Positions 34,324 through 47,617 of a DNA stretch of 62,025 bases are shown here, one piece after another. The position numbers were made by a program, and so were the translations under genes. This DNA is from an uncultured virus (IMG/VR IMGVR_UViG_3300028840_007129) (taxonomy: Duplodnaviria > Heunggongvirae > Uroviricota > Caudoviricetes), in IMG/VR virus record IMGVR_UViG_3300028840_007129. One strand, 5' to 3'. Numbering within the stretch: the stretch's first letter is position 1; each line of letters starts with the position of its first letter. The notes beneath the pieces were generated by a model, which was given only the letters and a program-made list of their open reading frames with translations, did not search any database and was not told the origin of the DNA.

Positions 34324-34398
34324 TGGGCCCTACAGGATTCGAACCTGTGACCCCCTGCTTGTAAGGCAGGTGCTCTGTACCAGCTGAGCTAAGAGCCC
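34324..34398 (-). tRNA. trnV: tRNA-Val(TAC)
   Basis: CCTGC-CT TAC AA-GCAGG; no encoded CCA. Confidence 0.95.
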
Positions 34399-34406
34399 GA
34401 CGAACT

Positions 34407-34483
34407 TGGTGGGTCGTGAGGGACTTGAACCCCCGACTAACGGATTATGAGTCCGACACTCTAACCAACTGAGTTAACGACCC
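34407..34483 (-). tRNA. trnI: tRNA-Ile2(CAT) (elongator Met not excluded)
   Basis: TCGGA-CT CAT AA-TCCGT; other CAT tRNAs are in cluster 2 and the cluster-1 leader uses ATA twice. Confidence 0.85.
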
Positions 34484-34502
34484 GCATACTATCAAAAGTG
34501 AA

Positions 34503-34574
34503 CAGGCGGGGAGAGACTCGAACTCTCGGGATCGGTTTTGGAGACCGACCGTTTAGCCGCTAACGAACCCGCCT
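34503..34574 (-). tRNA. trnW: tRNA-Trp(CCA)
   Basis: TCGGT-CT CCA AA-ACCGA. Confidence 0.9.
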
Positions 34575-34580
34575 AAAAAT

Positions 34581-34657
34581 TGGCGGACCGGACGAGACTT
34601 GAACTCGCGACCTCTGGCTTGACAGGCCAGCGTTCTAACCAACTGAACTACCGGTCC
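34581..34657 (-). tRNA. trnD: tRNA-Asp(GTC)
   Basis: CTGGC-CT GTC AA-GCCAG; CCA encoded. Confidence 0.95.
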
Positions 34658-34827
34658 CCGTTTGCTATCAATTTTACTATATCCAGCACCCTGGATTCAA
34701 TCTCTTCCATTTCTATCTTCACTTCTTCCTGAACCATTTCCTCGGTCCAGCAAGTGTGAATTTTTTTGAAAGACTCCCTGACTCTTTCAGTCAGTAACTG
34801 TTCTAGATAATCTCTCAAGGATTCCAT
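34648..34827 (-). CDS. 59-aa hypothetical protein (not in ORF track)
   Basis: GAGGAGG RBS; MESLRDYLEQLL... Confidence 0.55.
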   Translation of the reverse strand: MESLRDYLEQLLTERVRESFKKIHTCWTEEMVQEEVKIEMEEIESRVLDIVKLIANGDR

Positions 34828-34880
34828 GGAACCTCCTCTAGGGGCTGAATGGAATCCTTATATCAGTAGATTATCTAAAG

Positions 34881-34954
34881 TGTCCCTGGATGGGCTCGAA
34901 CCATCAACCTTCGGCTCCGGAGGCCGACGTTCTATCCAATTGAACTACAGGGAC
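34881..34954 (-). tRNA. trnR: tRNA-Arg(CCG)
   Basis: TCGGC-CT CCG GA-GCCGA. Confidence 0.95.
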
Positions 34955-35015
34955 GCAAGTGACGCCCTTTAAAGACGGCACTCATACTCTTTCTACACGT
35001 GGCAGATGAGCTATA

Positions 35016-35089
35016 TGGGACCGGCCTGATTCGAACAGGCGACCCCTACCATGTCAAGGTAGTGCTCTAACCATCTGAGCTACGATCCC
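35016..35089 (-). tRNA. trnV: tRNA-Val(GAC)
   Basis: CTACC-TT GAC AT-GGTAG. Confidence 0.95.
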
Positions 35090-35303
35090 GGTCATTTTCT
35101 CTTTTTTCCTGAACGGTAATCTCCTTCAATTTCTTTCTGGGATTCCCACACATGGTACAGGAGCACATTTTGGTCGTATTCCTGTGCAGCCTAATCCATC
35201 GAGGAATCTCCTCCTTTGATAAAAGGGGATCACCAAAAGCACGCTTTCTCCCCTTGTACTCGCTTTTGAGAAAACGATCCCTTTTGTCCTTCGGATGAGA
35301 CAT
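35067..35303 (-). CDS. small basic Cys-motif protein
   Basis: CSCTMCGNPRKK; start MSHPK. Confidence 0.7.
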   Translation of the reverse strand: MSHPKDKRDRFLKSEYKGRKRAFGDPLLSKEEIPRWIRLHRNTTKMCSCTMCGNPRKKLKEITVQEKRENDRDRSSDG

Positions 35304-35319
35304 GAGTAACACCCCCTGT

Positions 35320-35337
35320 TTAGAGTATTGTACTCAT
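35320..35337 (-). promoter_or_regulatory. uORF MSTIL* within a start-occluding hairpin
   Basis: AAAGGAGGGAGG RBS; GACATGAGTA/TACTCATGTC 10-bp stem. Confidence 0.6.
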
Positions 35338-35360
35338 GTCCTCCCTCCTTTCGGATTTGG

Positions 35361-35437
35361 TGGCACCCCTGCCAGGACTTGAACCCGGACTCTCCTGGTC
35401 CGTAGCCAGACGCTTTATCCAGTTAAGCTACAGGGGC
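35361..35437 (-). tRNA. trnR: tRNA-Arg(ACG)
   Basis: TCTGG-CT ACG GA-CCAGG. Confidence 0.95.
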
Positions 35438-35473
35438 GTATAACTCATAGGAGGCCATCAAGCCCCTCAAAAA

Positions 35474-35548
35474 TGGTACACCCAGAAGGACTCGAACCTT
35501 CAACCCATCGGTTAAGAGCCGATTGCTCTACCATTGAGCCATGGGTGC
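35474..35548 (-). tRNA. trnK: tRNA-Lys(CTT)
   Basis: ATCGG-CT CTT AA-CCGAT. Confidence 0.95.
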
Positions 35549-35553
35549 ATATC

Positions 35554-35628
35554 TGGTACCCCCGCCAGGATTTGAACCTGGGACCCACGGTTTAAAAGAC
35601 CGCTGCGCTACCACTGCGCTACGAGGGC
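35554..35628 (-). tRNA. trnK: tRNA-Lys(TTT)
   Basis: GCGGT-CT TTT AA-ACCGT. Confidence 0.95.
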
Positions 35629-35630
35629 AT

Positions 35631-35667
35631 AAATAAAAAGACCCGCCTGATTTCTCGGGCGGGTCTT
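35631..35667 (-). terminator. attenuator 1 intrinsic terminator
   Basis: AGACCCGCC-C-GA-GAAA-TC-A-GGCGGGTCT followed by TTTTATTT. Confidence 0.9.
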
Positions 35668-35691
35668 CTGTTTCAGAATTTAAACTCTAAT

Positions 35692-35778
35692 TCAGACAGA
35701 CCCCGCCCGGTCACGCTTAACCCAGCGATCTATACGGTCACGTTTGACCCGGCGTACTATCTGAATTACAGTGCTCAT
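35692..35778 (-). CDS. leader peptide 1 (28 aa, leaderless mRNA)
   Basis: MSTVIQIVRRVKRDRIDRWVKRDRAGSV; ATG 7 nt after the -10 box; codons match cluster-1 tRNAs. Confidence 0.85.
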   Translation of the reverse strand: MSTVIQIVRRVKRDRIDRWVKRDRAGSV

Positions 35779-35785
35779 ACTGACA

Positions 35786-35814
35786 ATAATACCTTATTCT
35801 GGGCTTAAAGTCAA
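35786..35814 (-). promoter_or_regulatory. sigma70 promoter of tRNA cluster 1
   Basis: TTGACT-17-TATTAT. Confidence 0.85.
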
Positions 35815-35849
35815 TACCTAAAATGAAAAATTTTTCTGAAACTTTAAAG

Positions 35850-37043
35850 TCAGGTAATCGATATGATATTCGGGTTTGACCCGGATATGCTTAGTGTTTT
35901 CGTGGACTCAGATGAAGCTAATGGAGTTTCTCTTGGACAACTGTAGAATCCACATACATACGTAATAGGATGTTTGCTGGCAGAAACATAGGAAACTGCG
36001 TCCGGTACCTCGTCAGAGAAGGCCAATATAGTATCCGAGTTCCAATCAGCCTGACTGAAGATATCCTTGCTCCATGACGTTCTCAGATTCGCAATGACAA
36101 CGGAAGTAATGATACCAGCATCCACAAGATCCTTATAAGATTGTGCCTGCTGGACATCTCCTACCATCATCATCACATCAACTCCTGTGCCACACTTCTC
36201 CCGATACTTTTTTATAAGCTCCCTCATAAAGGTTGTCTTGCCGATGTTTCTGAGATTACCGCAGTCAATGTTCAAAATACCGTTTGACCGGCTATTATCC
36301 CATTGGGACTTTAATAGCTCAAGACCCATGGCGTTTTTGAAACTCTTGAAATCTAGGTCACTCGGCTTGATGCACGTGATATCGAAAGCACTAATACAAG
36401 GACCCATGACACCCTCTCCCATTCTTCTGGGTTTGAAGGCATCTCTTTCGAATGCGGCAATGTCGTTAAGAAATGTGCGACAGGTGAAAGAGATGCTGTC
36501 ATCGTTATTAGCTGGGTCCTTTGAGACAAGGGGCTCTAATTTATTGAAAGCTGAATGTTCCCTTATAAGGCCATCACCAGTTTGAAAGGTCCAAAATTTG
36601 TAGAGCATTGCATATGGGGCCACTTTCTTATCAGGATTGCGATAGAAGTAATTAGTCTCTTTGTCATAGAGACAGTCAGCTAGTAACTTGAAGGCCACCT
36701 GAATATGGGTTATTGCCGGTGATAGACATATCTCGCGTATCATGGTATCGAAACGAAGTTCTGCGTTCCATTCGAAGACAGCCTGCCTTACAGAATAACG
36801 TATCTGGTCCAGATACATTGTAGGGATGGCGAAAAGGAAGTCCTTTACCCATTCATTGTACGTTTTTGGAAGCGTACCGGGGAATTCTCCAAAAGTGTAG
36901 GATTTCATTTTCCTATCATCTACAGAGCTCCAGTCGAGCTTGTAGATAGATGTAGACCCAGACTCTTCAGATCCAGGCTTGAAGCTAACGTCTTCGAGAT
37001 GAATGAGTTGGGGGAAGAATAGGGGACGAGAGAAGCGTAACAT
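35850..37043 (-). CDS. hypothetical protein with degenerate P-loop
   Basis: GNLRNIGKTT ... FSDE; AGGAGG RBS. Confidence 0.7.
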   Translation of the reverse strand: MLRFSRPLFFPQLIHLEDVSFKPGSEESGSTSIYKLDWSSVDDRKMKSYTFGEFPGTLPKTYNEWVKDFLFAIPTMYLDQIRYSVRQAVFEWNAELRFDTMIREICLSPAITHIQVAFKLLADCLYDKETNYFYRNPDKKVAPYAMLYKFWTFQTGDGLIREHSAFNKLEPLVSKDPANNDDSISFTCRTFLNDIAAFERDAFKPRRMGEGVMGPCISAFDITCIKPSDLDFKSFKNAMGLELLKSQWDNSRSNGILNIDCGNLRNIGKTTFMRELIKKYREKCGTGVDVMMMVGDVQQAQSYKDLVDAGIITSVVIANLRTSWSKDIFSQADWNSDTILAFSDEVPDAVSYVSASKHPITYVCGFYSCPRETPLASSESTKTLSISGSNPNIISIT

Positions 37044-37165
37044 GGCACACCTCCTGTGCTTGTACCGGGTAAGACAAAATACCGCAGACCTTCTGCGGTT
37101 ACCACAAGCGCAGGAATTATTAATAAATTATTGATATTTTCGTAAGAGTAACAAAGGAGGCCGCC

Positions 37166-37315
37166 ATGGCTGCAACAACAACCGATGCTCAGATGGGTCA
37201 GACTAAGGGTTCTATATCTCCTACGATAGGAGTATATAAGGAGACGTATACGTGGGTTCTTGATACGAAAACGAATGTCCCCGTGGCCGTGAGGAAGTCG
37301 GTCACTATAGGGTAA
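37166..37315 (+). CDS. 49-aa hypothetical protein (not in ORF track)
   Basis: AAGGAGG RBS; MAATTTDAQMGQ... Confidence 0.6.
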   Translation: MAATTTDAQMGQTKGSISPTIGVYKETYTWVLDTKTNVPVAVRKSVTIG

Positions 37316-37466
37316 CACCGTTTTCTAGGGCTCTTCTATACGTGTTTATGGCCCTTCTGTAGTCTTCTGAAGAGACCCTTCTCTTCTTAGAATCCTTTAA
37401 TCTGTCTCTGAACCGTTCTGCGTCTTTTCCACGTAGTATAGGCGTGTCTTTTATTGGAAGGGCCAT
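37305..37466 (-). CDS. 53-aa basic protein (not in ORF track)
   Basis: GGAG RBS; MALPIKDTPILRGKDAERFR... Confidence 0.6.
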   Translation of the reverse strand: MALPIKDTPILRGKDAERFRDRLKDSKKRRVSSEDYRRAINTYRRALENGVTL

Positions 37467-37495
37467 AGGTCATCTCCAAATAAAAAAGGGGCCAA

Positions 37496-38074
37496 TCAGG
37501 CCCCTGCTACGTATGGCTTCAGGATTTTATCGACGTAGAAACGGTGAGATATCTTATTCGGGTTGTAGGCGAACCTGAATACAGCGTAATCACCCTTCCT
37601 TACGGTCGGTACTGCTGGCTTCCGAATGAGTTCAAGACCAACCTCCTCCGGTAGCTTGTTACGCTTGACCACGACATTGTGATGCCTGCAACAGCATACG
37701 CAGTTCTCATAAGATGTTGCACCACCCTTCTCTCTGGGGGTGACGTGGTCAATCGTCCTTTCGTTCTCCGTACAAGTATAGGCGAACCTTTTACCGTCTT
37801 TGGTATAGTGCCAGTACTGACACTGGTTCTTGTCCCTGTTGTAGACCCCGTGGTCACTGTAAGGGACCCTGTCAGACTTGATACGATATGAAACGAAGTG
37901 GACAAGCCTTACGACGAGAGGAATCTTGAATCTTACTTCGAAGCTGCGGACCTCTTCGTCGTCCTTGGATACGAGTACCTCAATCTTATCCTTCACAAGC
38001 CACTTGATGGCTTTCTTGAGGTCTACTTCGGTCCAGTACTCGTAATTGCGGTTAAGAACGACTACAGAATACAT
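37496..38074 (-). CDS. HNH endonuclease (McrA-like)
   Basis: VVVLN, RDKNQCQY, TIDHVTPREKGG, NCVCCC. Confidence 0.88.
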   Translation of the reverse strand: MYSVVVLNRNYEYWTEVDLKKAIKWLVKDKIEVLVSKDDEEVRSFEVRFKIPLVVRLVHFVSYRIKSDRVPYSDHGVYNRDKNQCQYWHYTKDGKRFAYTCTENERTIDHVTPREKGGATSYENCVCCCRHHNVVVKRNKLPEEVGLELIRKPAVPTVRKGDYAVFRFAYNPNKISHRFYVDKILKPYVAGA

Positions 38075-38105
38075 AGCGGGGACTAATCCTTTCTGCGAAT
38101 AAGTG

Positions 38106-38147
38106 TTAACAGAGCGTATCGTATTCTTCGTAATATTTTATTGTCAT
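38106..38147 (-). promoter_or_regulatory. uORF MTIKYYEEYDTLC* pairing with the HNH start region
   Basis: AAAGGAG RBS; ATTAC..AGAATAC complementary to GTATTCT-GTAGT at the HNH start. Confidence 0.55.
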
Positions 38148-38178
38148 TACGACTCCTTTCTTCTGCTGATAGTTCATA

Positions 38179-38251
38179 TGCCCCTAGCACGATTCGAACG
38201 TGCGACACCCGGTTTAGGAAACCAGTACTCTATCCCCTGAGCTATAGGGGC
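38179..38251 (-). tRNA. trnR: tRNA-Arg(CCT)
   Basis: CTGGT-TT CCT AA-ACCGG. Confidence 0.93.
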
Positions 38252-38258
38252 AAAAATA

Positions 38259-38335
38259 TGGCACGCCCGGCAGGATTCGAACCTGCGACCTACTGCTTAG
38301 AAGGCAGTTGCTCTATCCAGCTGAGCTACGGGCGC
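38259..38335 (-). tRNA. trnR: tRNA-Arg(TCT)
   Basis: ACTGC-CT TCT AA-GCAGT. Confidence 0.95.
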
Positions 38336-38344
38336 ACATCTCTA

Positions 38345-38431
38345 TGGCGGAGAGACCGAGATTCGAACTCGGGGTGCTTTTGGCACACACGCTCTCCAGG
38401 CGTGCTCCTTAGACCACTCGGACACCTCTCC
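38345..38431 (-). tRNA. trnS: tRNA-Ser(GGA)
   Basis: CACGC-CT GGA GA-GCGTG; long variable arm. Confidence 0.95.
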
Positions 38432-38833
38432 TTAGTCTCTCTCGTCGACACCAAGGTTGTACAAGACGTTCAAAAGTCTCCTCTTGATAATTTCTTCCGG
38501 AGTAATTGAGTTCCTCCGATAGAACAACATTATGATCGTATTATCGTTCAGAACGACTTTCCAATCGACGGTAATGGGAGAGCAAAGCTGCTTTCCGTTC
38601 CAGACGAAATCGAACTTGTAGTTCTTTTCAACATATTTGATTTTACCGGATCTGGCGTCGTCCACAAGCTCCCGGAAGATCTCGATCTTCCTGTTGATGT
38701 AATCATCCCGACGGTTGTAATCGTCTTCTCTGTGATTGAAATCCTCGTCACCCCTTCTTTCTTCATCATAGTCTTCAGGGTGGTTGATTCTCTGATTTAG
38801 TTCTCTGAGCGAAGGGTCTCCATTACCGTTCAT
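38432..38833 (-). CDS. hypothetical protein
   Basis: 133 aa, coupled to upstream ORF. Confidence 0.7.
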   Translation of the reverse strand: MNGNGDPSLRELNQRINHPEDYDEERRGDEDFNHREDDYNRRDDYINRKIEIFRELVDDARSGKIKYVEKNYKFDFVWNGKQLCSPITVDWKVVLNDNTIIMLFYRRNSITPEEIIKRRLLNVLYNLGVDERD

Positions 38834-39021
38834 ACACCTACCTGCTTGGATGTTAATGTTAACGCAATACCTATGGGCTGACTTTTAGGTTCAAGCCGCT
38901 GGAGTTTGACTGTTTTGTTCTCTAGGAATTTCAATTCCCCTACAATCTCCTGAGCCTTTTCCCTCGCAGCGATATCGTCCATAGCCTTCATTGGTATCCG
39001 AACGATAAGCTGATAGTCCAT
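38830..39021 (-). CDS. hypothetical protein
   Basis: AGGAG RBS, 63 aa. Confidence 0.65.
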   Translation of the reverse strand: MDYQLIVRIPMKAMDDIAAREKAQEIVGELKFLENKTVKLQRLEPKSQPIGIALTLTSKQVGV

Positions 39022-39063
39022 AGGGTAACTCCTGACCTAGAATATAATGTTTTATGCTGTAAG

Positions 39064-39146
39064 CGGAGAAGAGAGGACTCGAACCTCTGAGGCCTAGGGC
39101 CCTGCCGAATTTCGAATTCGGTTCCTCGACCTTCCGGACCTTCTCC
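39064..39146 (-). tRNA. trnS: tRNA-Ser(CGA)
   Basis: CCGAA-TT CGA AA-TTCGG; long variable arm. Confidence 0.88.
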
Positions 39147-39155
39147 TCTAGAAAA

Positions 39156-39233
39156 TGGTGGGCGTACCTGGACTTGAACCAGGGAACCTCCTCCTTATCA
39201 GAGAGGCGTTCTAACCAGCTGAACTATACGCCC
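39156..39233 (-). tRNA. trnI: tRNA-Ile(GAT)
   Basis: CCTCT-CT GAT AA-GGAGG. Confidence 0.93.
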
Positions 39234-39240
39234 AGAATAA

Positions 39241-39324
39241 TGGGAGTGTAAGGATTCGAACCTTCCTAGTCGTAAGACAACGGATTTACAGTCCGCCCCA
39301 GCTCACCGCCTCTGGCGCACTCCC
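39241..39324 (-). tRNA. trnY: tRNA-Tyr(GTA)
   Basis: GCGGA-CT GTA AA-TCCGT; long variable arm (bacterial type). Confidence 0.92.
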
Positions 39325-39332
39325 TTAATGAC

Positions 39333-39410
39333 TGGTACCGGAGGGCGGCCTTGAACCGCCGACTGACATACCTTATGAGGGTACCGCACTACCAACTGTG
39401 CTACTCCGGT
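39333..39410 (-). tRNA. trnM: tRNA-Met(CAT), probably elongator
   Basis: GTACC-CT CAT AA-GGTAT. Confidence 0.85.
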
Positions 39411-39415
39411 AGAAA

Positions 39416-39490
39416 TGGTTGCGGGGGCCGGACTCGAACCGGCGACCTTCGGGTTATGAGCCCGAAAAGCTACCACTGCTACACCCCGCT
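39416..39490 (-). tRNA. trnfM: initiator tRNA-fMet(CAT)
   Basis: three consecutive G-C pairs in anticodon stem; 1:72 mismatch. Confidence 0.9.
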
Positions 39491-39505
39491 ATAACTTCTG
39501 ATTAA

Positions 39506-39589
39506 TGCTCAGGACTGGATTTGAACCAGCATGGAGTTGCCCCCACGAGCTCCTGAAACTCGCGTGTCTACCACTTCCACCACCTGAGC
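39506..39589 (-). tRNA. trnL: tRNA-Leu(CAG)
   Basis: CGAGT-TT CAG GA-GCTCG. Confidence 0.92.
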
Positions 39590-39596
39590 GAAATCT

Positions 39597-39674
39597 TGGG
39601 GTGATCGAGGGGTTTCGAACCCCCAACCTCTGGAGCCACAGTCCAGTGCTCTAACCTATTGAGCTACAATCACC
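39597..39674 (-). tRNA. trnH: tRNA-His(GTG)
   Basis: CTGGA-CT GTG GC-TCCAG; G-1:C73. Confidence 0.95.
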
Positions 39675-39698
39675 ATGTATGTTCTTGTACAACCCAGA

Positions 39699-39710
39699 AT
39701 GTCAAAGAAC
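39699..39710 (-). promoter_or_regulatory. boxA-like antitermination site
   Basis: GTTCTTTGACAT. Confidence 0.55.
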
Positions 39711-39711
39711 T

Positions 39712-39796
39712 TGGCGGAGAGACGGGGACTCGAACCCCGAAGGCCAATGGCCGGTAGTTTTCAAGACTACTGGATTACCGATTATCCTATCTCTCC
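39712..39796 (-). tRNA. trnS: tRNA-Ser(TGA)
   Basis: GTAGT-CT TGA AA-ACTAC. Confidence 0.92.
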
Positions 39797-39803
39797 ATAA
39801 AAG

Positions 39804-39888
39804 AGACGTGGACTGGATTTGAACCAGCGCGTGACTCCCGTCAAATGGTTTTGCAGACCACTGCCTTCGACCACTCGGCCACCACGTC
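39804..39888 (-). tRNA. trnC: tRNA-Cys(GCA) with atypical long variable arm
   Basis: GTGGT-CT GCA AA-ACCAT; U73; variable stem TGAC-GGGA-GTCA. Confidence 0.88.
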
Positions 39889-39893
39889 ATAAC

Positions 39894-39980
39894 TGGCAGA
39901 GGAGACAGGATTCGAACCTGTGGTGGTTTTGCCACATCGGTTTAGCAAACCGACGCCTTAAGCCTCTCGGCCACTCCTCC
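39894..39980 (-). tRNA. trnS: tRNA-Ser(GCT)
   Basis: TCGGT-TT GCT AA-ACCGA. Confidence 0.95.
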
Positions 39981-39989
39981 ATACTTTCA

Positions 39990-40072
39990 TGGCTGGGACA
40001 GGCATCGAACCTGCACGAGTTTTCCTCACCAGATCCTAGGTCTGGCGCGTATACCAATTCCGCCACCCAGCC
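39990..40072 (-). tRNA. trnL: tRNA-Leu(TAG)
   Basis: CCAGA-CC TAG GA-TCTGG (C33). Confidence 0.88.
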
Positions 40073-40077
40073 TTACT

Positions 40078-40162
40078 TGGTGCCCAGGGCCCGACTTGAA
40101 CGGGCACGAGTATTCTCAGCAGGGTTTGAGGCTGCCGCGTATACCAATTCCGCCACCTGGGC
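40078..40162 (-). tRNA. trnL: tRNA-Leu(CAA)
   Basis: GCAGC-CT CAA AC-CCTGC (C31:C39 mismatch). Confidence 0.85.
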
Positions 40163-40420
40163 TTATTTTCTTCTCGCTCGCCACTCTGGCATAGGCTCGT
40201 TTACAATTTGTTCTCCGCCATAGTACCATATAAGTGGTTTAGAGTCCCAATGATACTTCCAGTCCCTTATATTCCAAGGGTCATAGTATTTACGATAAGA
40301 CTTTCCATTTGGTACATTGTCAGAATTTCTGACCCTACGATTAGCCTCACGCTTCTTAAACTTGGTAGACTTTTTTCCGTAACCGTCTAAGAACCAGGGC
40401 TCTCTGTAAGACCTTGACAT
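40163..40420 (-). CDS. small basic protein
   Basis: MSRSYR...KREANRRVR...NGKSYRKYYDPWNIRDW; AAGGAG RBS. Confidence 0.75.
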   Translation of the reverse strand: MSRSYREPWFLDGYGKKSTKFKKREANRRVRNSDNVPNGKSYRKYYDPWNIRDWKYHWDSKPLIWYYGGEQIVNEPMPEWRARRK

Positions 40421-41092: not shown

Positions 41093-41168
<76 letters not shown>

Positions 41169-41442: not shown

Positions 41443-41583
41443 TAGAAAAAATGTTCTGACTAAAAAAAGGGGTCTTTGGCATCTACAGCCCTGATTGTCT
41501 TTCCATCTATTCTCAAGAATCTAAGTGGCTTGATAGCTGGATTAGGATTCTTCGGTTGTTCCTTCTGGCCCTCTCCGCCCCCT

Positions 41584-41988
41584 TTAGAAAGGTTTATATC
41601 GATATTTCCTCAGCACATATTTGAAGATGATGCTATTCAGTTCTCTAGTTGTCTTTGAACTTTGGACCCAGTCTTTGATATCGTCAGGATGGTCAGGCGG
41701 GTATATTCCGAGCTCTCTAATAATATCAAGGCCTTCTTCAGAATTGTAGTATTCAACGAGTTTCCAGAGTACCCGTTCGGTTCTCTTATTTAATGATATA
41801 ACCTCTCCGTTTCGATGTCTATTGCAAATGCCCAGTATATATTTCCATTGCTGGACACCACCAGATTTTCTCGTTATCTCACTAAATAAGTAGGAACGTA
41901 CACCAGTATAGAATGAGAGACGTTTGAGGCGAACTTCCTGTTCCATCTCTTCGTAATACTCTTCAAGAGTTTCCAAGGTCTTTTCCAT
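41584..41988 (-). CDS. hypothetical protein
   Basis: 134-aa ORF. Confidence 0.6.
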   Translation of the reverse strand: MEKTLETLEEYYEEMEQEVRLKRLSFYTGVRSYLFSEITRKSGGVQQWKYILGICNRHRNGEVISLNKRTERVLWKLVEYYNSEEGLDIIRELGIYPPDHPDDIKDWVQSSKTTRELNSIIFKYVLRKYRYKPF

Positions 41989-42037
41989 ATGTTCAGTTTT
42001 ACCTGAATAATGGTAGTAAAAGATTATTGAAAAATAA

Positions 42038-42109
42038 AGCCGGTATCCGGATTTGAACCGAAAACCTGCTGTTTACGAAACAGCTGCTCTACCTTTGAGC
42101 TATACCGGC
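42038..42109 (-). tRNA. trnT: tRNA-Thr(CGT)
   Basis: GCTGT-TT CGT AA-ACAGC. Confidence 0.92.
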
Positions 42110-42115
42110 AGAATA

Positions 42116-42193
42116 TGGAGCCGACAGCAGGAGTCGAACCCGCAACAACTTGAGTACAAATCAAGTGCTCTGAGCCATTTGAGCTATGTCGGC
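42116..42193 (-). tRNA. trnT: tRNA-Thr(TGT)
   Basis: CTTGA-TT TGT AC-TCAAG. Confidence 0.92.
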
Positions 42194-42210
42194 ACTGATA
42201 ATCTATTTAT

Positions 42211-42543
42211 ATGAACGACTTAGGTATGAAAACCGCTACAAAAGCCCCCGGAGAAAAGCTCATCAGCGGTGATGGCTACTATATGATAAAGCCCCCTAAG
42301 GGCTATAAGGGCAAGACTTACATAGATGGCCGGTACATTTATGAGCACCGGTATATTATGGAGAAAAAGCTTGGAAGGCCCCTAAAATATAATGAGAACA
42401 TAGATCACATAAATGGTAATAAATTGGACAACAGACCCTCGAATCTAAGGCTCCTCTCAAGGGCCAAGCACACTCAACATACAAAGCCCGCCAAAAAGGC
42501 CAGAAGTATCGTAGAGGCCTACCTCAAACTACAAGCCTCTTAG
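42211..42543 (+). CDS. HNH endonuclease
   Basis: YEHRYIME...HINGNKLDNRPSNL. Confidence 0.88.
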   Translation: MNDLGMKTATKAPGEKLISGDGYYMIKPPKGYKGKTYIDGRYIYEHRYIMEKKLGRPLKYNENIDHINGNKLDNRPSNLRLLSRAKHTQHTKPAKKARSIVEAYLKLQAS

Positions 42544-43844
42544 CCTCTACCCTTTTACCGATTTTTATATCTACAAAGACCGTCCCAGGGTTATCCTGGC
42601 CTGGCTGAATAATAGTGGTATTACCGAGTTTGGCCTTCCATGTATTACTCACCCACGGAGACTCGTGTATATGGCCGCAGAGGACGAGTAGCGGCTGTTC
42701 TCTTTCTATCCATTTTCTGACGGAATCTGACCCGACTCTCCTATAACCCAGACACACATCAAGGTTCAGGCCTGATGGGGGGCAATGAATCGCAGCTATT
42801 ACTTTCGGCCCTCCAGGAAATGTCTTGAGATCATCTTCAATGGTGCCCTTGTTCTTGAAATATTCATGGGGGTCTTCAACCACAACGAAGCCCCCATCGG
42901 TGACATCGACGGGCTTACCGGTATAGGGTTCCTCAAGAAACCATCCCTGATGGTCTATTTTGCATGCTGTTTTTAACCCGAAGCGATAATCAGGGACATA
43001 CCCATAAGCAGTAAAAAAGTAGCCGCCGAACCCCATTTACCGTCGTGCTTTCCGGCGCACAATCTCATCCATCACCGTCTGCGCATCCATCGAGGTATCC
43101 AGGCCAAGCCACTCCCCGAATTTGCGGACCGAGCACTCCGGCACCTGCGTTTCAAGCAGCCACATGAAATTGGGCGACAGACGTGCCAGGTGAATGGACG
43201 GTTATTCACCCCCTCCCCAGCAGGAACCCGTCATCCGCAAGCGCACCAATTACCCCTATGAGGAGGCAGTTGCCGGGGATCAACATTTAACATTGAGCAC
43301 CGAGACAATTTCTGCATTCATTCGTAAGCCATTATTATTTAATGAGTTGTCTTGGTTGTTGCCGGGAAATTATTTGCTGCTTGCCGATGCAACATTTAAC
43401 ATGCGGGTCTACGGGATTTAACACCATTGGCCTTCCTGAAGGCAAAAAACCTGCCGCCGATCGGGTTTGCTACCGGGAAACTCGGCGGGTACTTCCGGCG
43501 GGTTTTTGGGCTCGCGAACGTGCCCACAAGTGGCGGATTTTGAAGGACCCTACCGGGGTTTCATCGAGAAGAGACGCATATTCGAGGAGGTATCTCTTTC
43601 GGGTATAGATATCATCATTTCCGAAGAAAGCCAGGACCTTTATACCCGATTCGGAGCATTTTAGATAGAATTCCTTGAGGTAATTTCTTATGAATGCTTT
43701 TTGTTCTTTTAATATCTCAGGACCTTTTGGTAGAATATCTGCCCCAATATGAATAAGGTCTATACCGTTATCATAAGCATACTGATAGACATCATCGTAT
43801 TTTCTTTGATTGCCGTGAAGATCCGTAGCGTATAGAAATCTCAT
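42524..43844 (-). pseudogene. calcineurin-like metallophosphoesterase split by a 517-bp insertion
   Basis: N-half TDLHG, GAD, GNDD; C-half HCPP, LCGHIHE; removing the insert restores the frame (ETPVGFGGYFF). Confidence 0.85.
43030..43550 (-). mobile_element. foreign insertion flanked by GGGT direct repeat, with cos- or att-arm-like motifs
   Basis: GC-richer; GGGTCCT-17 bp-dyad TGGGC..GCCCA; ATGTTAAATGTTG x2; IHF-like AT-rich site. Confidence 0.6.
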
Positions 43845-43859
43845 GTAAAATCCTTTGAG

Positions 43860-43931
43860 AGCGACAGGCCGGGATTGAACCGGCGACATCTACCTTGGCA
43901 AGGTAGCATTCTACCACTGAATTACTGTCGC
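43860..43931 (-). tRNA. trnG: tRNA-Gly(GCC)
   Basis: CTACC-TT GCC AA-GGTAG. Confidence 0.95.
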
Positions 43932-43941
43932 AAAGGGTTAA

Positions 43942-44016
43942 TGGAGCGGGATGTCGGGTTCGAACCGACGGCGTCAACCTTGGAAGGGTTGCATTCTACC
44001 ACTGAATTAATCCCGC
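43942..44016 (-). tRNA. trnG: tRNA-Gly(TCC)
   Basis: CAACC-CT TCC AA-GGTTG. Confidence 0.95.
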
Positions 44017-44026
44017 TAGATTACAA

Positions 44027-44102
44027 TGGAGCGGAAGACGGGGTTCGAACCCGCGACAACCTGCTTGGGAAGCAGGAACTCTACCACCTGAGCTACTTCC
44101 GC
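44027..44102 (-). tRNA. trnG: tRNA-Gly(CCC)
   Basis: CCTGC-TT CCC AA-GCAGG. Confidence 0.95.
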
Positions 44103-44103
44103 A

Positions 44104-44256
44104 TCAGTCCCAAATATCATCCTCCTCATTATCCTCTAATGAAAACGTATCCATCTCAATACTCTGGTCTTCGTCGTCTTCGTCTACCTCATCATCAAAT
44201 CCGCTGAAGCAGCTCATCATTTCAAGATGGTGGCTCTCATAATCATCGTCATACAT
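44104..44256 (-). CDS. 50-aa extremely acidic peptide (not in ORF track)
   Basis: MYDDDYESHHLEMMSCFSGFDDEVDEDDEDQSIEMDTFSLEDNEEDDIWD. Confidence 0.55.
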   Translation of the reverse strand: MYDDDYESHHLEMMSCFSGFDDEVDEDDEDQSIEMDTFSLEDNEEDDIWD

Positions 44257-44421
44257 TTTATCTTTTCCCGGATGAAGGTTGCAGCTTACTTTTCAGCTGG
44301 ATCATACAATCGGGAAAAACCCTACGGCAAGATGAATTTTTCGCTTACAAGCAACTCTAATGTTCCCAACGGGTTACATTCATAATAATCTATCGATAAT
44401 GGGTATTATTTACAAAAAGTA

Positions 44422-44494
44422 TGGAACCAGTCGGGATCGAACCGACGACCTCCTGCTTGCAAAGCAGGCGCTCTCCCAATTGAGCTATGGCCCC
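44422..44494 (-). tRNA. trnA: tRNA-Ala(TGC)
   Basis: CCTGC-TT TGC AA-GCAGG; G3.U70. Confidence 0.95.
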
Positions 44495-44503
44495 ATAGAA
44501 AAA

Positions 44504-44560
44504 TGGAATCGGCCGGGATCGAACCGGCGACCTCAACGCTGCCAGCGTTGCTACGACCCC
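44504..44560 (-). tRNA. trnA: D-armless tRNA-Ala(GGC) (possibly pseudo)
   Basis: GGGGTCG-TAG-CAACG CT GGC AG CGTTG-AGGTC-T arm-CGATTCC-A; 57 nt. Confidence 0.75.
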
Positions 44561-44604
44561 AGGCGCTATTGATATGAGATCCTTCCATACTTTATTTTTC
44601 CGGT

Positions 44605-45015
44605 ATGGCAGACACACTTCTTCTTATCTCAGAATCTGGCGGCGGAGTCTTCAGGATTTCTACTGGCACTCTCAAAAATCCCGGTGATTTTCAGAGAGAT
44701 AAAACTATAGAAATCTCTGACCAGAATCCTTTTATGCTTTGGAATCTCCTCTATGAGATGGCATCCCTACCTATTCCTCGTCATCCCATCGAAACTAAGC
44801 CTGAAAAGGCTACAAGGGACGATGGCGAGTTCATGGGAATGACAGGAAAACAGGTCATAGATGAGGTGTACAAGCGCACGGGCATTCTCATAACTATAAG
44901 CCCTAAGAGCAAAGAACGAATTGTAAAAAAGGCTAAAGAGCTCATCGATCTTTCTCAGCTCCCCAAAAATGAGAATATAGCCTCGCCCGGAATTGAACCG
45001 GGGTGTACGGCTTGA
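44605..45015 (+). CDS. hypothetical protein sharing the rIIB C-terminal repeat domain
   Basis: MTGKQVIDEVYKRTGILITISPKSKERIVKKA. Confidence 0.7.
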   Translation: MADTLLLISESGGGVFRISTGTLKNPGDFQRDKTIEISDQNPFMLWNLLYEMASLPIPRHPIETKPEKATRDDGEFMGMTGKQVIDEVYKRTGILITISPKSKERIVKKAKELIDLSQLPKNENIASPGIEPGCTA

Positions 45016-45050
45016 AGGGCCGTTGGACTAGACCACTATCCTACGAGGCC
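44978..45050 (-). tRNA. trnE: tRNA-Glu(TTC)
   Basis: ACGGC-CC TTC AA-GCCGT (C33). Confidence 0.88.
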
Positions 45051-45376
45051 TTTTTTTCCACTGATGCCTTAAGAAGAGGGACAGCAATAGTCTTTATGAT
45101 TATTTCGAGGGCTTTTATGAAATAGGCCCTCTTGAATCTTCTTATTTTTAGGCCCCTCGTCGCTATAACACCATTTACCATAGCTGCAAGGTGCATCAAA
45201 TTAATCTGATGCTTTTCGGGATGGTCAGAGGTAATGGATAAAACCTTTTCTCTGGCTACATCAAGAGATAGTTGTTTTAGAAACTCCTGGTCTTCTTCAA
45301 ACCACAGGTCACTCACGCTTTCACGCATGAGCCCAAAAATCTCTTGCTGCAACTTCTCAATAGTTTCATTATTCAC
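45041..45376 (-). CDS. hypothetical protein
   Basis: 111 aa. Confidence 0.7.
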   Translation of the reverse strand: MNNETIEKLQQEIFGLMRESVSDLWFEEDQEFLKQLSLDVAREKVLSITSDHPEKHQINLMHLAAMVNGVIATRGLKIRRFKRAYFIKALEIIIKTIAVPLLKASVEKKAS

Positions 45377-45379
45377 TTT

Positions 45380-45610
45380 TCAGTCTCCTGCTGCCGTGGA
45401 ATCTGCTTGATTCACGAGTTTTTGGAACTGTTCAGCAGTCTGGATTCTTATTCTTTTTGAATCGCTATCCAGATTTTGGTCATTTTTAACATAGTTCCTG
45501 TACTCGGGCAGGATAACTCGTGTATAACTGTCTACAGCTTTGATGAAGGACCTATTCGAGGAGCAGCTAACAAGGGATAGAATCGAAACAACAACGATTA
45601 TACGCTTCAT
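45380..45610 (-). CDS. lipoprotein
   Basis: signal peptide with lipobox LVS-C. Confidence 0.75.
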   Translation of the reverse strand: MKRIIVVVSILSLVSCSSNRSFIKAVDSYTRVILPEYRNYVKNDQNLDSDSKRIRIQTAEQFQKLVNQADSTAAGD

Positions 45611-45628
45611 GTTTACCCCTTATTGTAA

Positions 45629-45705
45629 TGGAGCCCACGATCGGGCTTGAACCGATGAACCTCATCCTTACCAAGGATGTGCTCTACCAACTGAGCTACA
45701 TGGGC
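45629..45705 (-). tRNA. trnT: tRNA-Thr(GGT)
   Basis: CATCC-TT GGT AA-GGATG. Confidence 0.95.
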
Positions 45706-45726
45706 TTTATCGAGTATCGATACAAT

Positions 45727-46500
45727 CTAAAATTCGAACTTCTGACCTTTACTAACAAAGCCAGAAAAACCGTCAGCTCTTGCATCGGGAAGGTCTTTGA
45801 GGGTGTTGTAATGATAGAGCCATATTTTCTTTTTCAACTCTGGTGCCAGGGTCTTTAAGTCCTCATAATGCGCGTGGACCCCGCTCTGATGTTGTGATGT
45901 CTCACAGTCATGGAAAACGACATCAGCCCCTTTTATGAAGTCTTTCAGCTGAGTCGGGGCAAATTGGGTATCTGAAGTTATAAAGATTGATGTCCCACTG
46001 ATAGGATCCTTAAATTTCAATCCGAAAGATTTCACAAAAGTAGCATCAGCAATAACGTGTATAGTTTGAACAGGTTTGAATACGCACCCATCAAATTCGA
46101 ATGAAGCATTGTTGGGAACCCCGACCGTATCAAAGAAGGTCTCCAGAGTGGCATCCTTAAGCTGAATGGAATCCAAGCCACCCCGCAAGGATTGATTCCA
46201 AAGGTCTTTGATTAACATGGAATTTGCAAACAACTTTGGCCTGAATCCCGTGTTTACGGTCTTGCAGAAGTAATTCAGAAAGGCCATGTATTCCAGGCCG
46301 CCGATGTGGTCCGCATGAAGATGAGAGACATAGATAGCATCTATGTCTAAAGCTGAAAGGCCCTGCTCTTTCAAGGACCATCTAATATCTCCCCCACAAT
46401 CAAAGAGCATTTTCTTTCCGGAAGGGGTCTGAATAAGAGCGTTCGATTGGAAATTGTCCATACAGAATGCGGATCCGCTACCAAGAAAAGTTAAAATCAT
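45727..46500 (-). CDS. metallo-beta-lactamase-fold hydrolase (RNase Z/BN-like)
   Basis: FLGSGSAF, DCG, SHLHADHIGG, TSDT, HDCE, LYHY. Confidence 0.85.
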   Translation of the reverse strand: MILTFLGSGSAFCMDNFQSNALIQTPSGKKMLFDCGGDIRWSLKEQGLSALDIDAIYVSHLHADHIGGLEYMAFLNYFCKTVNTGFRPKLFANSMLIKDLWNQSLRGGLDSIQLKDATLETFFDTVGVPNNASFEFDGCVFKPVQTIHVIADATFVKSFGLKFKDPISGTSIFITSDTQFAPTQLKDFIKGADVVFHDCETSQHQSGVHAHYEDLKTLAPELKKKIWLYHYNTLKDLPDARADGFSGFVSKGQKFEF

Positions 46501-47009
46501 TCTTCTTCTCCTATCAATAGGTCGATAGCTTTTTTAACGTCTTCCTTACGTATACCCTTCCTGCTATCCGTTTTAACAAGTCTATCCATATGCGGGGGTA
46601 TATCGTAAGAGTCATCATCGAGAACAATATAGCTATCGATCTCGAATCCATTCTTCTTGGCGTTATCTAACCAGAAGTCTATCTCTGAGCCTCGACCGAA
46701 AGGCTTACCATCTTTTTTATCCTCTTCCTTCTCATTTATTGAAAAAGATGGCGTTTTGCCTATGATGCTGGATCCATCAAATGGTTCCGGATTAGCCACA
46801 TAACAACCCCAACGGTCGCCCCCACTGCAGAAAAGCTCTTTGAGATTGTTAACCGTCAGGCCCTTCCTCCAGGTGCTCGTTACTACGATTTTAGCACCTG
46901 TACGTTCCAGGATGGTGTTAAGACGTCTCATACAGATAGGGTCAAAATAGCAGAATCTTGTCCTGTCCGTACAGACGACACCATCGATATCAAGGAAGAT
47001 AATTTTCAT
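46497..47009 (-). CDS. HAD-family phosphatase (RNA-repair-associated type)
   Basis: IFLDIDGV, VTSTWR, RGSEI, YIVLDD. Confidence 0.82.
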   Translation of the reverse strand: MKIIFLDIDGVVCTDRTRFCYFDPICMRRLNTILERTGAKIVVTSTWRKGLTVNNLKELFCSGGDRWGCYVANPEPFDGSSIIGKTPSFSINEKEEDKKDGKPFGRGSEIDFWLDNAKKNGFEIDSYIVLDDDSYDIPPHMDRLVKTDSRKGIRKEDVKKAIDLLIGEEE

Positions 47010-47209
47010 GGTACCAGTTCTGTTGATATTCTTAATCTTGCACTTATAGGTAGCGCTTCGTTAAGGTGCTTTATTATTAATGAGCACCCCATTGGGGCAT
47101 GTGATGATATCGTAGCTGTCCCTGAGAAGTTTTTCTGTCATAAGATACTTCTCTATGTCGATTAGGGATACGATACCCAACACGTTATCCAAAAAGAGCT
47201 CCTTATTTT

Positions 47210-47282
47210 TAGCCCCGACGGGAATTGAACCCATGTCTGATGGTTGAGAACCATCTATCCTAGACCACTAGACGACGAGGCC
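47210..47282 (-). tRNA. trnE: tRNA-Glu(CTC)
   Basis: GATGG-TT CTC AA-CCATC. Confidence 0.93.
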
Positions 47283-47296
47283 TAATTTCAAAAATT

Positions 47297-47373
47297 TGGC
47301 TGGGAGGGTGGGGGTCGAACCCACGACCGCGTGATTAACAGTCACGAGCTACTGCCAACTGAGCTACCTCCCA
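47297..47373 (-). tRNA. trnN: tRNA-Asn(GTT)
   Basis: CGTGA-CT GTT AA-TCACG. Confidence 0.93.
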
Positions 47374-47410
47374 GTATCAAATGATAGGTACTTTATCAGC
47401 AGAAATAAAG

Positions 47411-47423
47411 ATGTCAAAGAACA
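47411..47423 (-). promoter_or_regulatory. boxA-like site directly after attenuator 3
   Basis: TGTTCTTTGACAT. Confidence 0.6.
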
Positions 47424-47457
47424 AAATAAAAAAGGCTCCCCGGTTCAGGGAGCCTTT
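47423..47457 (-). terminator. attenuator 3 intrinsic terminator
   Basis: AAAGGCTCCC-TGAACCG-GGGAGCCTTT followed by TTTATTTT. Confidence 0.9.
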
Positions 47458-47484
47458 GGATCTTCGGATGGAAACAAAGACTCC

Positions 47485-47565
47485 CTATAGGTACAGTCCT
47501 TCCGTACCATTGGCCTCGGTGGCCGCGTTATTAAGGACTGATGTCAGGGAGTTCTTTGTCTTCAT
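47485..47565 (-). CDS. leader peptide 3 (26 aa)
   Basis: GAGG RBS; MKTKNSLTSVLNNAATEANGTEGLYL; codons match cluster-3 tRNAs. Confidence 0.85.
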   Translation of the reverse strand: MKTKNSLTSVLNNAATEANGTEGLYL

Positions 47566-47588
47566 AATGACCTCTATGGTTCGCTATT

Positions 47589-47617
47589 AGTATACACCTT
47601 TTCAGAACTAAAATCAA
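47589..47617 (-). promoter_or_regulatory. sigma70 promoter of tRNA cluster 3
   Basis: TTGATT-17-TATACT. Confidence 0.8.

Follow-up and report, generated by a model that had tools for sequence, protein, structure and literature searches.

Why phages carry tRNA genes is an old open question, for which codon-usage matching, decay of host tRNAs and escape from anticodon nucleases have all been candidate answers. A 62,025-nucleotide stretch of DNA from an uncultured virus of the Caudoviricetes (IMG/VR record IMGVR_UViG_3300028840_007129; the window from here on) raises the question in a particular form, in that each of its three tRNA clusters is preceded by a short open reading frame (ORF) in which many of the codons are those decoded by the tRNAs behind it. 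An initial annotation had read the three units as codon-matched attenuators acting as multi-input gates, and this reading was supported by our tests of reading frame, isoacceptor choice, permutation, co-variation and complementarity of the ORF end. We consider it very likely that the units are ribosome-mediated (leader-peptide) attenuators that sense how well the cell is supplied with the tRNAs encoded behind them, and that these tRNAs feed back negatively on the units. To judge from the sequence, the clusters are probably transcribed only when their tRNAs run short.

Three tRNA clusters and their leader units

The source of the window is a giant phage. A total of 36 tRNA genes were found in the window by ARAGORN with default settings (34324-47373), every one on the minus strand, while Rfam at gathering score returned 34 tRNA matches and no other family over the whole window. 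The tRNAs were grouped in three clusters. Cluster 1 (35628-34324) contained Lys-TTT, Lys-CTT, Arg-ACG, Val-GAC, Arg-CCG, Asp-GTC, Trp-CCA, a CAT tRNA that is probably Ile2, and Val-TAC, with two small ORFs interspersed among them. Cluster 2 (41168-38178) contained 17 tRNAs (Phe, four Leu, four Ser, Cys, His, two Met, Tyr, Ile-GAT, Arg-TCT and Arg-CCT), also with small ORFs interspersed, and cluster 3 (47373-42038) contained Asn, two Glu, three Thr, Ala-TGC and three Gly. Protein genes on the same strand were interspersed among the tRNAs of cluster 3, namely a HAD_SAK_2 protein, an Apyc1-like metallo-beta-lactamase-fold (MBL) protein and a split metallophosphoesterase. A megablast search of positions 34000-48000 against 50,697 phage records returned only tRNA-sized matches and no close relative.

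The same order of elements was observed at all three clusters, on the minus strand and at the positions where the initial annotation had placed them: a promoter-like site with a 17-nt spacer, a short leader ORF, a hairpin with a T tract, and then the first tRNA. Promoter calls were made by sigma-70 consensus matching alone. The L1 unit, ahead of cluster 1, begins with TTGACT/17 nt/TATTAT (35786-35814; 10 of 12 consensus matches), followed by an ORF of 28 amino acids (35692-35778; MSTVIQIVRRVKRDRIDRWVKRDRAGSV) and a putative intrinsic terminator with T tract (35629-35667; stem-loop about 35667-35638, about -20 kcal/mol), which ends 9 nt before tRNA-Lys (35628). The L2 unit, ahead of cluster 2, begins with TTGACA/17 nt/TATACT (41414-41442; 11 of 12 matches), followed by an ORF of 36 amino acids with AGGAG just 5' of its ATG (41275-41385; MRSVTPRSMHLRSSHADLSLSLCSYFIMLSTAGDPS) and a putative terminator with T tract (41205-41251; stem-loop about 41251-41216, about -25 kcal/mol) that ends 47 nt before tRNA-Phe (41168). 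The L3 unit, ahead of cluster 3, begins with TTGATT/17 nt/TATACT (47589-47617; 9 of 12 matches), followed by an ORF of 26 amino acids with GAGG 6 nt 5' of its ATG (47485-47565; MKTKNSLTSVLNNAATEANGTEGLYL) and a putative terminator with T tract (47421-47457; stem-loop 47457-47431 with a 12-bp stem, -19 kcal/mol) that ends 57 nt before tRNA-Asn (47373). Minimum free energy folds of the L1, L2 and L3 regions were more stable than those of shuffled sequences (z of -7.1, -3.9 and -7.2, respectively), and none of 200 shuffles was as stable in any of the three.

The motif TTCTTTGACA was also observed just past the leader terminators of distant phages (W_L3, G1_c, LR_d), with sites in the window at 47412-47421 (-) and 39700-39709 (-), in locus L008 at 6787-6796 and 4457-4466 (-), and in locus L024 at 8342-8351 (-). 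At G1_c it lies only 9 nt from the tRNA and is thus hardly the -35 box of that tRNA. Window-wide the motif was not enriched, with 8 matches (at most one mismatch) against 6.1 expected.

Leader codons match the tRNAs of their own cluster

Codons were scored as cognate under conservative wobble rules, with the CAT tRNA of cluster 1 taken as an ATA decoder. The internal codons cognate to the leader's own cluster numbered 20 of 27 in L1, 23 of 35 in L2 and 13 of 25 in L3, compared with only 3-7 per leader that were cognate to the other two clusters. That the centre of each leader holds the codons its cluster decodes, as had been claimed from inspection, was borne out by the coverage of anticodons: a leader codon was present for 9 of 9 in cluster 1, for 16 of 16 in cluster 2 and for 9 of 10 in cluster 3 (GGG missing). 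The sensing block of L1 (codons 7-24, 35707-35760) consists of 18 successive codons cognate to cluster 1 (ATA, GTA, CGC/CGT, CGG, GTC/GTT, AAA, AAG, GAC/GAT, TGG). In the block of L2 (codons 7-30, 41296-41367) GCG and GAC (codons 16-17) alone lack a cognate tRNA in cluster 2, given that TTA is read by an intron-bearing tRNA described below. The block of L3 (codons 12-23, 47497-47532) reads AAT, AAC, GCG, GCC, ACC, GAG, GCC, AAT, GGT, ACG, GAA, GGA. The operon behind L3 spans 5.3 kb, and L3 names Thr-TGT and Thr-CGT, which both lie at its far end (42193-42038).

To place these matches against a background we used the 542 small ORFs of 20-45 codons in the six frames of the window. Contiguous cognate runs were 18 codons in L1, 13 in L2 and 5 in L3. 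L1 was unique among the 542 for its run of 18 together with 9 of 9 anticodons, and L2 for its run of 13 together with 16 of 16. L3 was weaker, its run of 5 being reached by 3 ORFs and its coverage of 9 by 13; when a tRNA-Ala(GGC) candidate in cluster 3 (see below) was counted, the run of L3 became 12 and this leader was unique as well.

The match had been described as specific for isoacceptors, and this held. All seven Arg codons of L1 are CGN and ATA occurs twice, while the L2 block holds AGA, AGG and ATT. The description needs one correction, in that one ATT is also found in L1 (codon 5) and one CGT in L2 (codon 2), both outside the blocks.

The same design in other phages

A total of 18 leaders were collected in seven phage genomes. 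In addition to the window, the design recurred in four other huge-phage contigs (G001, G005, G007 and LR756501.1), in the cultured Agrobacterium phage Atu_ph07 and, less clearly, in Xanthomonas phage XacN1. Across the seven genomes the peptides differ and their composition matches the tRNAs of the cluster behind, so that what appears to be conserved is the correspondence to the tRNAs and not the peptide. Co-variation of leader codons with tRNA content, which the initial annotation had proposed as a check, was seen in other phages.

The clearest comparison came from G001, a 466,729-bp IMG/VR contig with 47 tRNAs that was reached via a 67%-identical homologue of the MBL-fold protein (45727-46500 in the window). 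Five units were observed there, each with a TTGACA/17/TATATT promoter-like site, a small ORF and a terminator, and each leader tracks its own, differently composed cluster. The leader MINATVRIAEEGREGRIPT precedes two Glu, CAT, Arg-TCT, three Gly and Arg-CCT tRNAs; MFSLKAKRVVSKRRVTPSGVV precedes two Lys, two Val, Arg-CCG and Arg-ACG; MFLFVQNPNPNQQPRNKSPLGFGRTL precedes Asn, three Pro and two Gln; MRTTIGISIIFSAIDFDSMDIAM precedes Phe, Asp, two Met, Ile-GAT and Ser-GCT; and a leader of 40 amino acids precedes a cluster with 20 anticodons, all 20 of which are covered. The Arg tRNAs that read AGR (TCT and CCT) have moved to the Glu/Gly cluster in this genome, and the AGA and AGG codons have moved to the leader of that cluster. 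Asp, Trp and CAT tRNAs are missing from the Lys/Val/Arg cluster, and the corresponding codons are missing from the leader in front of it. Cluster a of G001 also has a promoter-like site with TG (TTTACA/17/TATATT; locus L008, 16250-16278 (-)) directly before its CAT tRNA and with no leader; this tRNA may also be made independently of the attenuator.

In G005, a leader beginning MNKLYSYFSCSSLWSLS precedes Ser, Leu, Trp, Phe, Cys and Tyr tRNAs. In G007, one leader containing IYIPFYPIYIPY precedes Pro, Tyr and Ile tRNAs, and another containing LSNLHLNLSQQLN precedes two Gln, Asn, His, Ser-GCT and Leu tRNAs. Four leaders were found in LR756501.1 (735,411 bp), one of which uses all six Leu codons ahead of five Leu tRNAs; this genome also encodes a CCA-adding enzyme 37% identical to that of the window. 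The Atu_ph07 leader (MF403008.1, about 339246-339118 on the minus strand) has 42 amino acids, and its block names 12 of the 14 downstream anticodons. About 28 nt past its stop codon lies a hairpin with T tract, and the 5' arm of this hairpin is the exact complement of nine bases within the ORF. In XacN1, the ORF MNKPYYKRYYAKA precedes Lys, Lys and Tyr tRNAs, and an ORF of 41 amino acids precedes Phe, Asp, Ile, Ala, Val, His and Ser-GCT tRNAs.

Other routes to relatives were less productive. A metagenome scan with the MBL protein yielded 19 loci, among which only two 100%-identical contigs carry tRNAs and L3, and these are hence not independent. Relatives of the CCA-adding enzyme at loci L001-L004 (55-57% identity) had no tRNA within 10 kb, and no relative of the 397-amino-acid protein at 35850-37043 was found in viral_contigs. 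tRNAs were later found in the whole records of G005 and G006. A 15-nt motif common to the L1 and L2 terminators had 58 matches in viral_contigs; none of these was near a tRNA, and they were put down to chance.

Statistical tests across the collected leaders

The cognate codons were concentrated in the reading frame of the leaders. Over the 18 leaders, 268 of 490 codons were cognate in frame, compared with 104 of 472 in each other frame (0.55 versus 0.22). We then recoded 15 leaders synonymously, keeping the peptides and redrawing each codon from the long-ORF usage of the same genome. The observed leaders cover 122 of 130 anticodons, a number reached by none of 5000 recodings (mean 105.9, maximum 119), and the observed 214 cognate codons were likewise reached by none of the 5000.

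For amino acids whose isoacceptors sit in different clusters of the same genome (Arg CGN versus AGR, Ser AGY versus TCN, Ile ATA versus ATY), 29 of 32 codons matched the leader's own cluster, against an expectation of 15.6 (sd 2.7). The three exceptions all lie outside the sensing blocks (L1 codon 5, L2 codon 2 and G1_e codon 32). Such precision at the level of isoacceptors speaks for single tRNA species, and against amino acids, as what counts for the device. In the three genomes with more than one leader we permuted the assignment of leaders to clusters, another check suggested at the outset, and the true assignment was the only one of 1440 that reached the observed score. When all 609 small ORFs of the window and of seven loci from G001, G005 and G006 were scored against the tRNAs within 5 kb downstream, leaders took ranks 1, 2, 3, 5, 6, 8, 13 and 19.

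Predicted pairing between the end of the leader ORF and the terminator

A strong hairpin followed by a T tract (-16.5 to -27.8 kcal/mol) was present in 14 of 15 leaders, and in 10 of these 14 it begins 21-27 nt past the stop codon. The ORFs end in codons without a cognate tRNA in the cluster, and this G-rich stretch is complementary to the terminator 5' arm. In L1 the predicted antiterminator strand lies at the 3' end of the ORF (35698-35710; duplex -22.4 kcal/mol), as it does in L2 (41282-41293; -25.3 kcal/mol), and no duplex as good was found in 500 shuffles of either. The L3 strand (47475-47486) starts inside the stop codon and forms a weaker duplex (-14.1 kcal/mol), matched by 23 of 500 shuffles. 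All three strands are on the minus strand. In 14 of 14 leaders the terminator 5' arm formed a better duplex with the ORF tail than with a stretch of the sensing block of equal length, and in 11 of 14 no more than 25 of 500 mononucleotide shuffles equalled the pairing with the tail.

We also folded transcripts cut just before the 3' arm of the terminator while moving a ribosome mask of 30 nt stepwise through the ORF. In these truncated transcripts the 5' arm was paired upstream when the ribosome was in the block and was freed when it was near the stop codon. The probability of upstream pairing between these two positions fell from 0.81 to 0.09-0.35 in L2, from 0.97 to 0.17 in L3, from 0.9 to 0.12 in G1_a and from 0.65 to 0.10 in G1_d. 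The initial annotation had described mutually exclusive hairpins, and this part of it stood in the complementarity between ORF end and terminator arm and in the dependence on ribosome position in the truncated folds. It did not stand in equilibrium folds of the full leader, where L2 was the only one of the four leaders computed that switched (terminator probability down to 0.07-0.40).

A proposed tRNA homeostat

These observations lead us to propose the following model. Transcription would start at the sigma-70-type promoter, and a ribosome would translate the leader of 26-36 codons while the polymerase advances. The middle of the leader would serve as a checklist with one to a few codons per downstream tRNA, and its G-rich, non-cognate last codons as the upstream antiterminator strand, which would pair with the 5' arm of the terminator some 20-27 nt past the stop. 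Given an ample supply of every listed tRNA, of host or phage origin, the ribosome would reach the end of the ORF and cover or unwind this strand, so that the terminator folds and transcription stops before the first tRNA. When any listed tRNA is scarce, the ribosome would stall in the checklist, the antiterminator would persist and the whole cluster would be transcribed, together with any RNA-repair-like and counter-defence-like genes embedded in it. The fresh tRNAs would then relieve the stall, and the unit would act as an OR gate with negative feedback, that is, as a tRNA homeostat.

What is sensed would be how fast each listed codon is decoded, and the gate could accordingly open upon cleavage of host tRNAs by defence nucleases, upon tRNA decay after host shut-off, when late expression outruns supply, or when charging fails. 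Leader translation, termination, read-through, the stalling logic and the physiological trigger are all inferred, and tRNA cleavage by host defences is one candidate for that trigger; the circuit itself cannot tell nuclease damage from lost host tRNA synthesis, high demand or uncharged tRNA.

Evidence against the model and alternative explanations

Several observations weigh against the attenuator model. Promoter-like sites as a class were not enriched in the window (29 found versus 22.8, sd 5.2, in shuffled sequences), and a second such site between the L3 terminator and tRNA-Asn (47417-47390) could bypass the terminator. L1 lacks a Shine-Dalgarno sequence and starts with an ATG 7 nt past the -10 box, for which reasons its mRNA is probably leaderless. 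The Shine-Dalgarno sequence of L2 is only 2 nt from the ATG, and for both L2 and G1_d an internal ATG was taken as the start instead of that of the longest ORF. The drop in upstream pairing of the truncated L1 transcript was modest (0.9 to 0.35-0.69). Truncated transcripts without a ribosome already favoured the antiterminator (probability 0.54-0.89), so that in these folds an untranslated leader may read through, unlike that of trp. Eight of the 130 anticodons lack a leader codon, among them Gly-CCC in two leaders, and at the isoacceptor level the match is looser in LR756501.1 (5 of 6, 4 of 4, 5 of 6 and 12 of 15 anticodons covered). Rank 4 in the scan of 609 ORFs was taken by an AT-rich G006 ORF located 1.9 kb upstream of the nearest tRNA, which is probably a false positive arising from AT composition. 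We found no leader at the clusters of G005 locus L010 and LR756501.1 locus L021, no terminator-linked leader in G006 (27 tRNAs), and no convincing leader in a scan of T5 and KVP40, although the downstream tRNAs of KVP40 cover 74% of codons and the test has no power there.

The alternative that survives best keeps the hardware and changes the signal. Here the leaders would respond to general translational stress, to a lack of aminoacylation (through starvation, synthetase loss or ribosome-targeting toxins) or to the timing of infection, and tRNA synthesis would track overall decoding capacity. As in classical attenuators, a stalled ribosome cannot tell a missing from an uncharged tRNA, and nearly every fault in elongation would set off the leaders, since their blocks span up to 20 anticodons and 12 amino acids. 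In Anabaena a tRNA array that is induced by stress has been described (PMC10272220). The isoacceptor match, however, is finer than a sensor of amino acids or of stress needs, with 29 of 32 split-family codons on the correct side and none of the 5000 recodings as good, and the neighbouring RNA-repair-like and counter-defence-like genes fit tRNA damage. We regard this alternative as possible but doubtful compared with sensing of the downstream-encoded tRNAs themselves.

A second alternative accepts that the leaders sense tRNAs but assigns their output, at least in some phages, to Rho-dependent termination and polarity or to precursor processing and stability. It draws on the same termination results that trouble the attenuator model. 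No intrinsic terminator was found at G7_a, and none was seen by eye past either XacN1 ORF. Full-leader equilibrium folds kept the terminator (probability of at least 0.78) at all ribosome positions in L1, L3 and G1_a, that is, they failed to switch in three of the four leaders computed, and because of this the attenuator model needs kinetic competition during transcription. A strong hairpin with a T tract in 14 of 15 leaders, its start 21-27 nt past the stop codon in 10 of 14, and the specific complementarity of the ORF end to the terminator 5' arm in 11 of 14 nevertheless speak for the hairpin as the output, and we judge this second alternative improbable.

Direct RNA-RNA sensing without a ribosome, as in a T-box-like element with many specifiers or a tRNA sponge, would also yield codon-anticodon complementarity, which is in itself independent of translation. 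The triplets, however, are contiguous and in one frame from ATG to stop, with the cognate fraction falling from 0.55 in that frame to 0.22 in the others, L2 and L3 have Shine-Dalgarno sequences, and no T-box or other riboswitch was matched at gathering score or at E-values up to 1. This makes direct pairing very improbable. That the leaders are an artefact of chance or composition, or that the peptides of these small ORFs have a function of their own outside regulation, we regard as all but excluded, since even with 238 small ORFs of at least 20 amino acids overlapping the region and the high score of the AT-rich G006 ORF, L1 and L2 were unique among 542, a single assignment in 1440 and no recoding in 5000 equalled the data, and the design recurs in seven genomes with differing peptides and matching composition.

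Unusual tRNAs indicated by the leaders

Under the attenuator model the leaders bear on what the cluster tRNAs decode, and they hold codons (TTA and GCC) for two tRNAs that default ARAGORN missed. Both loci had been flagged from ORF translations before the leaders were analysed. The first lies in cluster 2 (40475-40821, minus strand) and was obtained with ARAGORN when introns were allowed. It is a type II tRNA whose exons total 90 nt and whose anticodon loop is interrupted by an intervening sequence of about 257 nt, and it was labelled Ser(tga). Its exons are closest to the four Leu tRNAs of the window, which were the top 4 of 10 comparisons. We favour the reading in which the splice falls one step earlier, after U34, and the anticodon is Leu(UAA). 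TTA is found inside the L2 block and is cognate to Leu(UAA), and with this tRNA counted 17 of 17 anticodons of cluster 2 are covered. No Rfam group I intron was matched by the intervening sequence at E-values up to 1.

The second is a tRNA-Ala(GGC) candidate in cluster 3 (44503-44561, minus strand), found in the mitochondrial mode of ARAGORN, from which the anticodon is also taken. It has 59 nt and no D arm. G3.U70 and G4.U69 are present as in the adjacent tRNA-Ala(TGC), the T arm is normal and the CCA is not encoded. The L3 block carries two GCC codons, which are cognate to this candidate, and because of these codons we suggest that the D-arm-less tRNA is in use. To our knowledge tRNAs without a D arm occur in some mitochondria, and we know of none from phages.

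The ATA codons of L1 fit the CAT tRNA of cluster 1, which its ortholog grouping separates from the initiator-like and elongator-like CAT tRNAs. In addition, tRNAs that have the anticodon CTA and would thus read TAG (labelled Pyl by ARAGORN) were observed in G001, in G005 and twice in XacN1 (sites at locus L008 2862-2938 (-), locus L009 5701-5775 (+) and locus L030 6648-6806 (+)). These are possible suppressor tRNAs.

Comparison with known systems

The enterobacterial attenuators of amino-acid operons (ilvGMEDA, ilvBN, thr, trp, his, leu and pheA) have the same layout as the phage units: a promoter and a short leader that carries the regulatory codons come first, and alternative hairpins and an intrinsic terminator follow ahead of the genes under control. 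Multi-input sensing has a precedent in the ilv and thr leaders, in each of which codons of two or three amino acids are found together. The phage units differ in that they are carried by a phage, that the genes regulated are tRNAs, not biosynthetic enzymes, and that the product would feed back directly on the sensor. Their blocks list 5-20 anticodons at the isoacceptor level, most of them one to a few times, whereas the enterobacterial leaders have runs of one to three amino acids. In Rfam only a sub-threshold match to Phe_leader was observed, covering the L3 terminator and the 3' end of its ORF (28.8 bits versus a gathering score of 55; E-value 0.24). All leader-peptide attenuators known to us regulate genes of amino-acid biosynthesis or of aminoacyl-tRNA synthetases; the genes behind the terminators here are tRNAs, and with their many inputs and their isoacceptor-level choice of codons the units are a surprising departure from known attenuators.

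The pheST attenuator with its pheM leader is alike in being a leader-peptide attenuator of a gene of the translation apparatus, but has one input for one amino acid and regulates a protein. The tRNA-Phe genes of E. coli, pheV and pheU, were examined for a Phe-rich leader of this kind and have none, as the promoter abuts the tRNA and there is no leader ORF. T-box riboswitches are alike in coupling tRNA-specific codon-anticodon recognition to the choice between terminator and antiterminator, but they bind uncharged tRNA directly with one specifier and regulate synthetase or amino-acid genes, while here many codons lie in an ORF. The T-box covariance model gave no match at gathering score over the whole window, nor at E-values up to 1 in 34000-48000.

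The initial annotation knew of no described case of leader-peptide attenuation of tRNA genes, and our full-text literature search, in which coverage of subscription journals is thin and an older account is possible, agreed in returning no description of one. The nearest functional analogue was found in Anabaena PCC 7120, whose trn operon is a large array of accessory tRNAs, silent by default and induced by translational stress (PMC10272220). Its control differs, being exerted by a ribbon-helix-helix repressor, TrcR, at the -10 box, and the words leader, attenuat, stall and terminator are absent from that text (PMC10272220). The genomic setting of our units is that of huge phages of 200-735 kb, for which up to 67 tRNAs and genes for tRNA repair and translation have been described (Al-Shayeb et al. 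2020, PMC7162821); in the main text of that article leader, attenuat and terminator are absent.

Taken as a whole, it is likely that huge phages run their tRNA genes as self-regulating circuits, with a checklist for each operon, a shortage of any single isoacceptor that opens the operon and new tRNAs that close it. The units would form a widespread class of attenuator (seven genomes including Atu_ph07), the first whose products are the sensed tRNAs, and its leaders would annotate the function of the clusters, arguing that an Ala(GGC) tRNA without a D arm and an intron-bearing Leu(UAA) tRNA work in a phage and that the CAT tRNA of cluster 1 reads ATA. If this is true, the phage treats tRNAs as a reserve on demand that is transcribed only when decoding of its own codons slows, and the question of why phages carry tRNAs becomes testable at the level of single isoacceptors and single operons. 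For attenuation as a mechanism it would be a case of a regulated product that is itself the molecule sensed, and a single leader would take up to 20 inputs. The leaders would further offer ready-made, isoacceptor-specific sensors of tRNA supply and independent evidence on decoding by odd tRNAs, such as CAT as Ile2 and the D-arm-less and intron-bearing tRNAs. The presence of the device in the cultured phage Atu_ph07, and probably in XacN1, means that experiments are not tied to an uncultured phage.

Gene neighbourhood

Pfam searches of the surrounding region (45727-60133) showed RNA-repair-like, counter-defence-like and NAD-salvage genes. Three of the proteins lie inside the L3 operon on the minus strand: a HAD domain of RNA-repair proteins (HAD_SAK_2; 46497-47009), the Apyc1-like MBL protein (45727-46500) and the metallophosphoesterase, which is split into two parts (43889-43470 and 43036-42524) with about 430 nt between them. 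The split may be due to an intron or to insertion of a homing endonuclease. An ORF for an HNH_3 endonuclease (42211-42543) was also observed on the strand opposite to the metallophosphoesterase, overlapping its 3' end.

A CCA-adding enzyme (47614-49209) lies just upstream of the L3 operon. Further genes observed by Pfam were a 2H/Acb1-like phosphoesterase (51115-51705), a NUDIX protein with an NrtR domain (51970-52704), an NAD synthase (58127-58930) and a NAPRTase (58940-60133), and a kinase-like and PP2C pair is located at 53936-56451. Such surroundings are consistent with a phage module that maintains tRNAs and counters host defence, and do not by themselves identify the trigger of the leaders. 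Elsewhere in the window, an ORF of 1781 amino acids at 3645-8990 (+) had no Pfam match and coincides with a very strong GC skew (0.33-0.45 over 2-8 kb).

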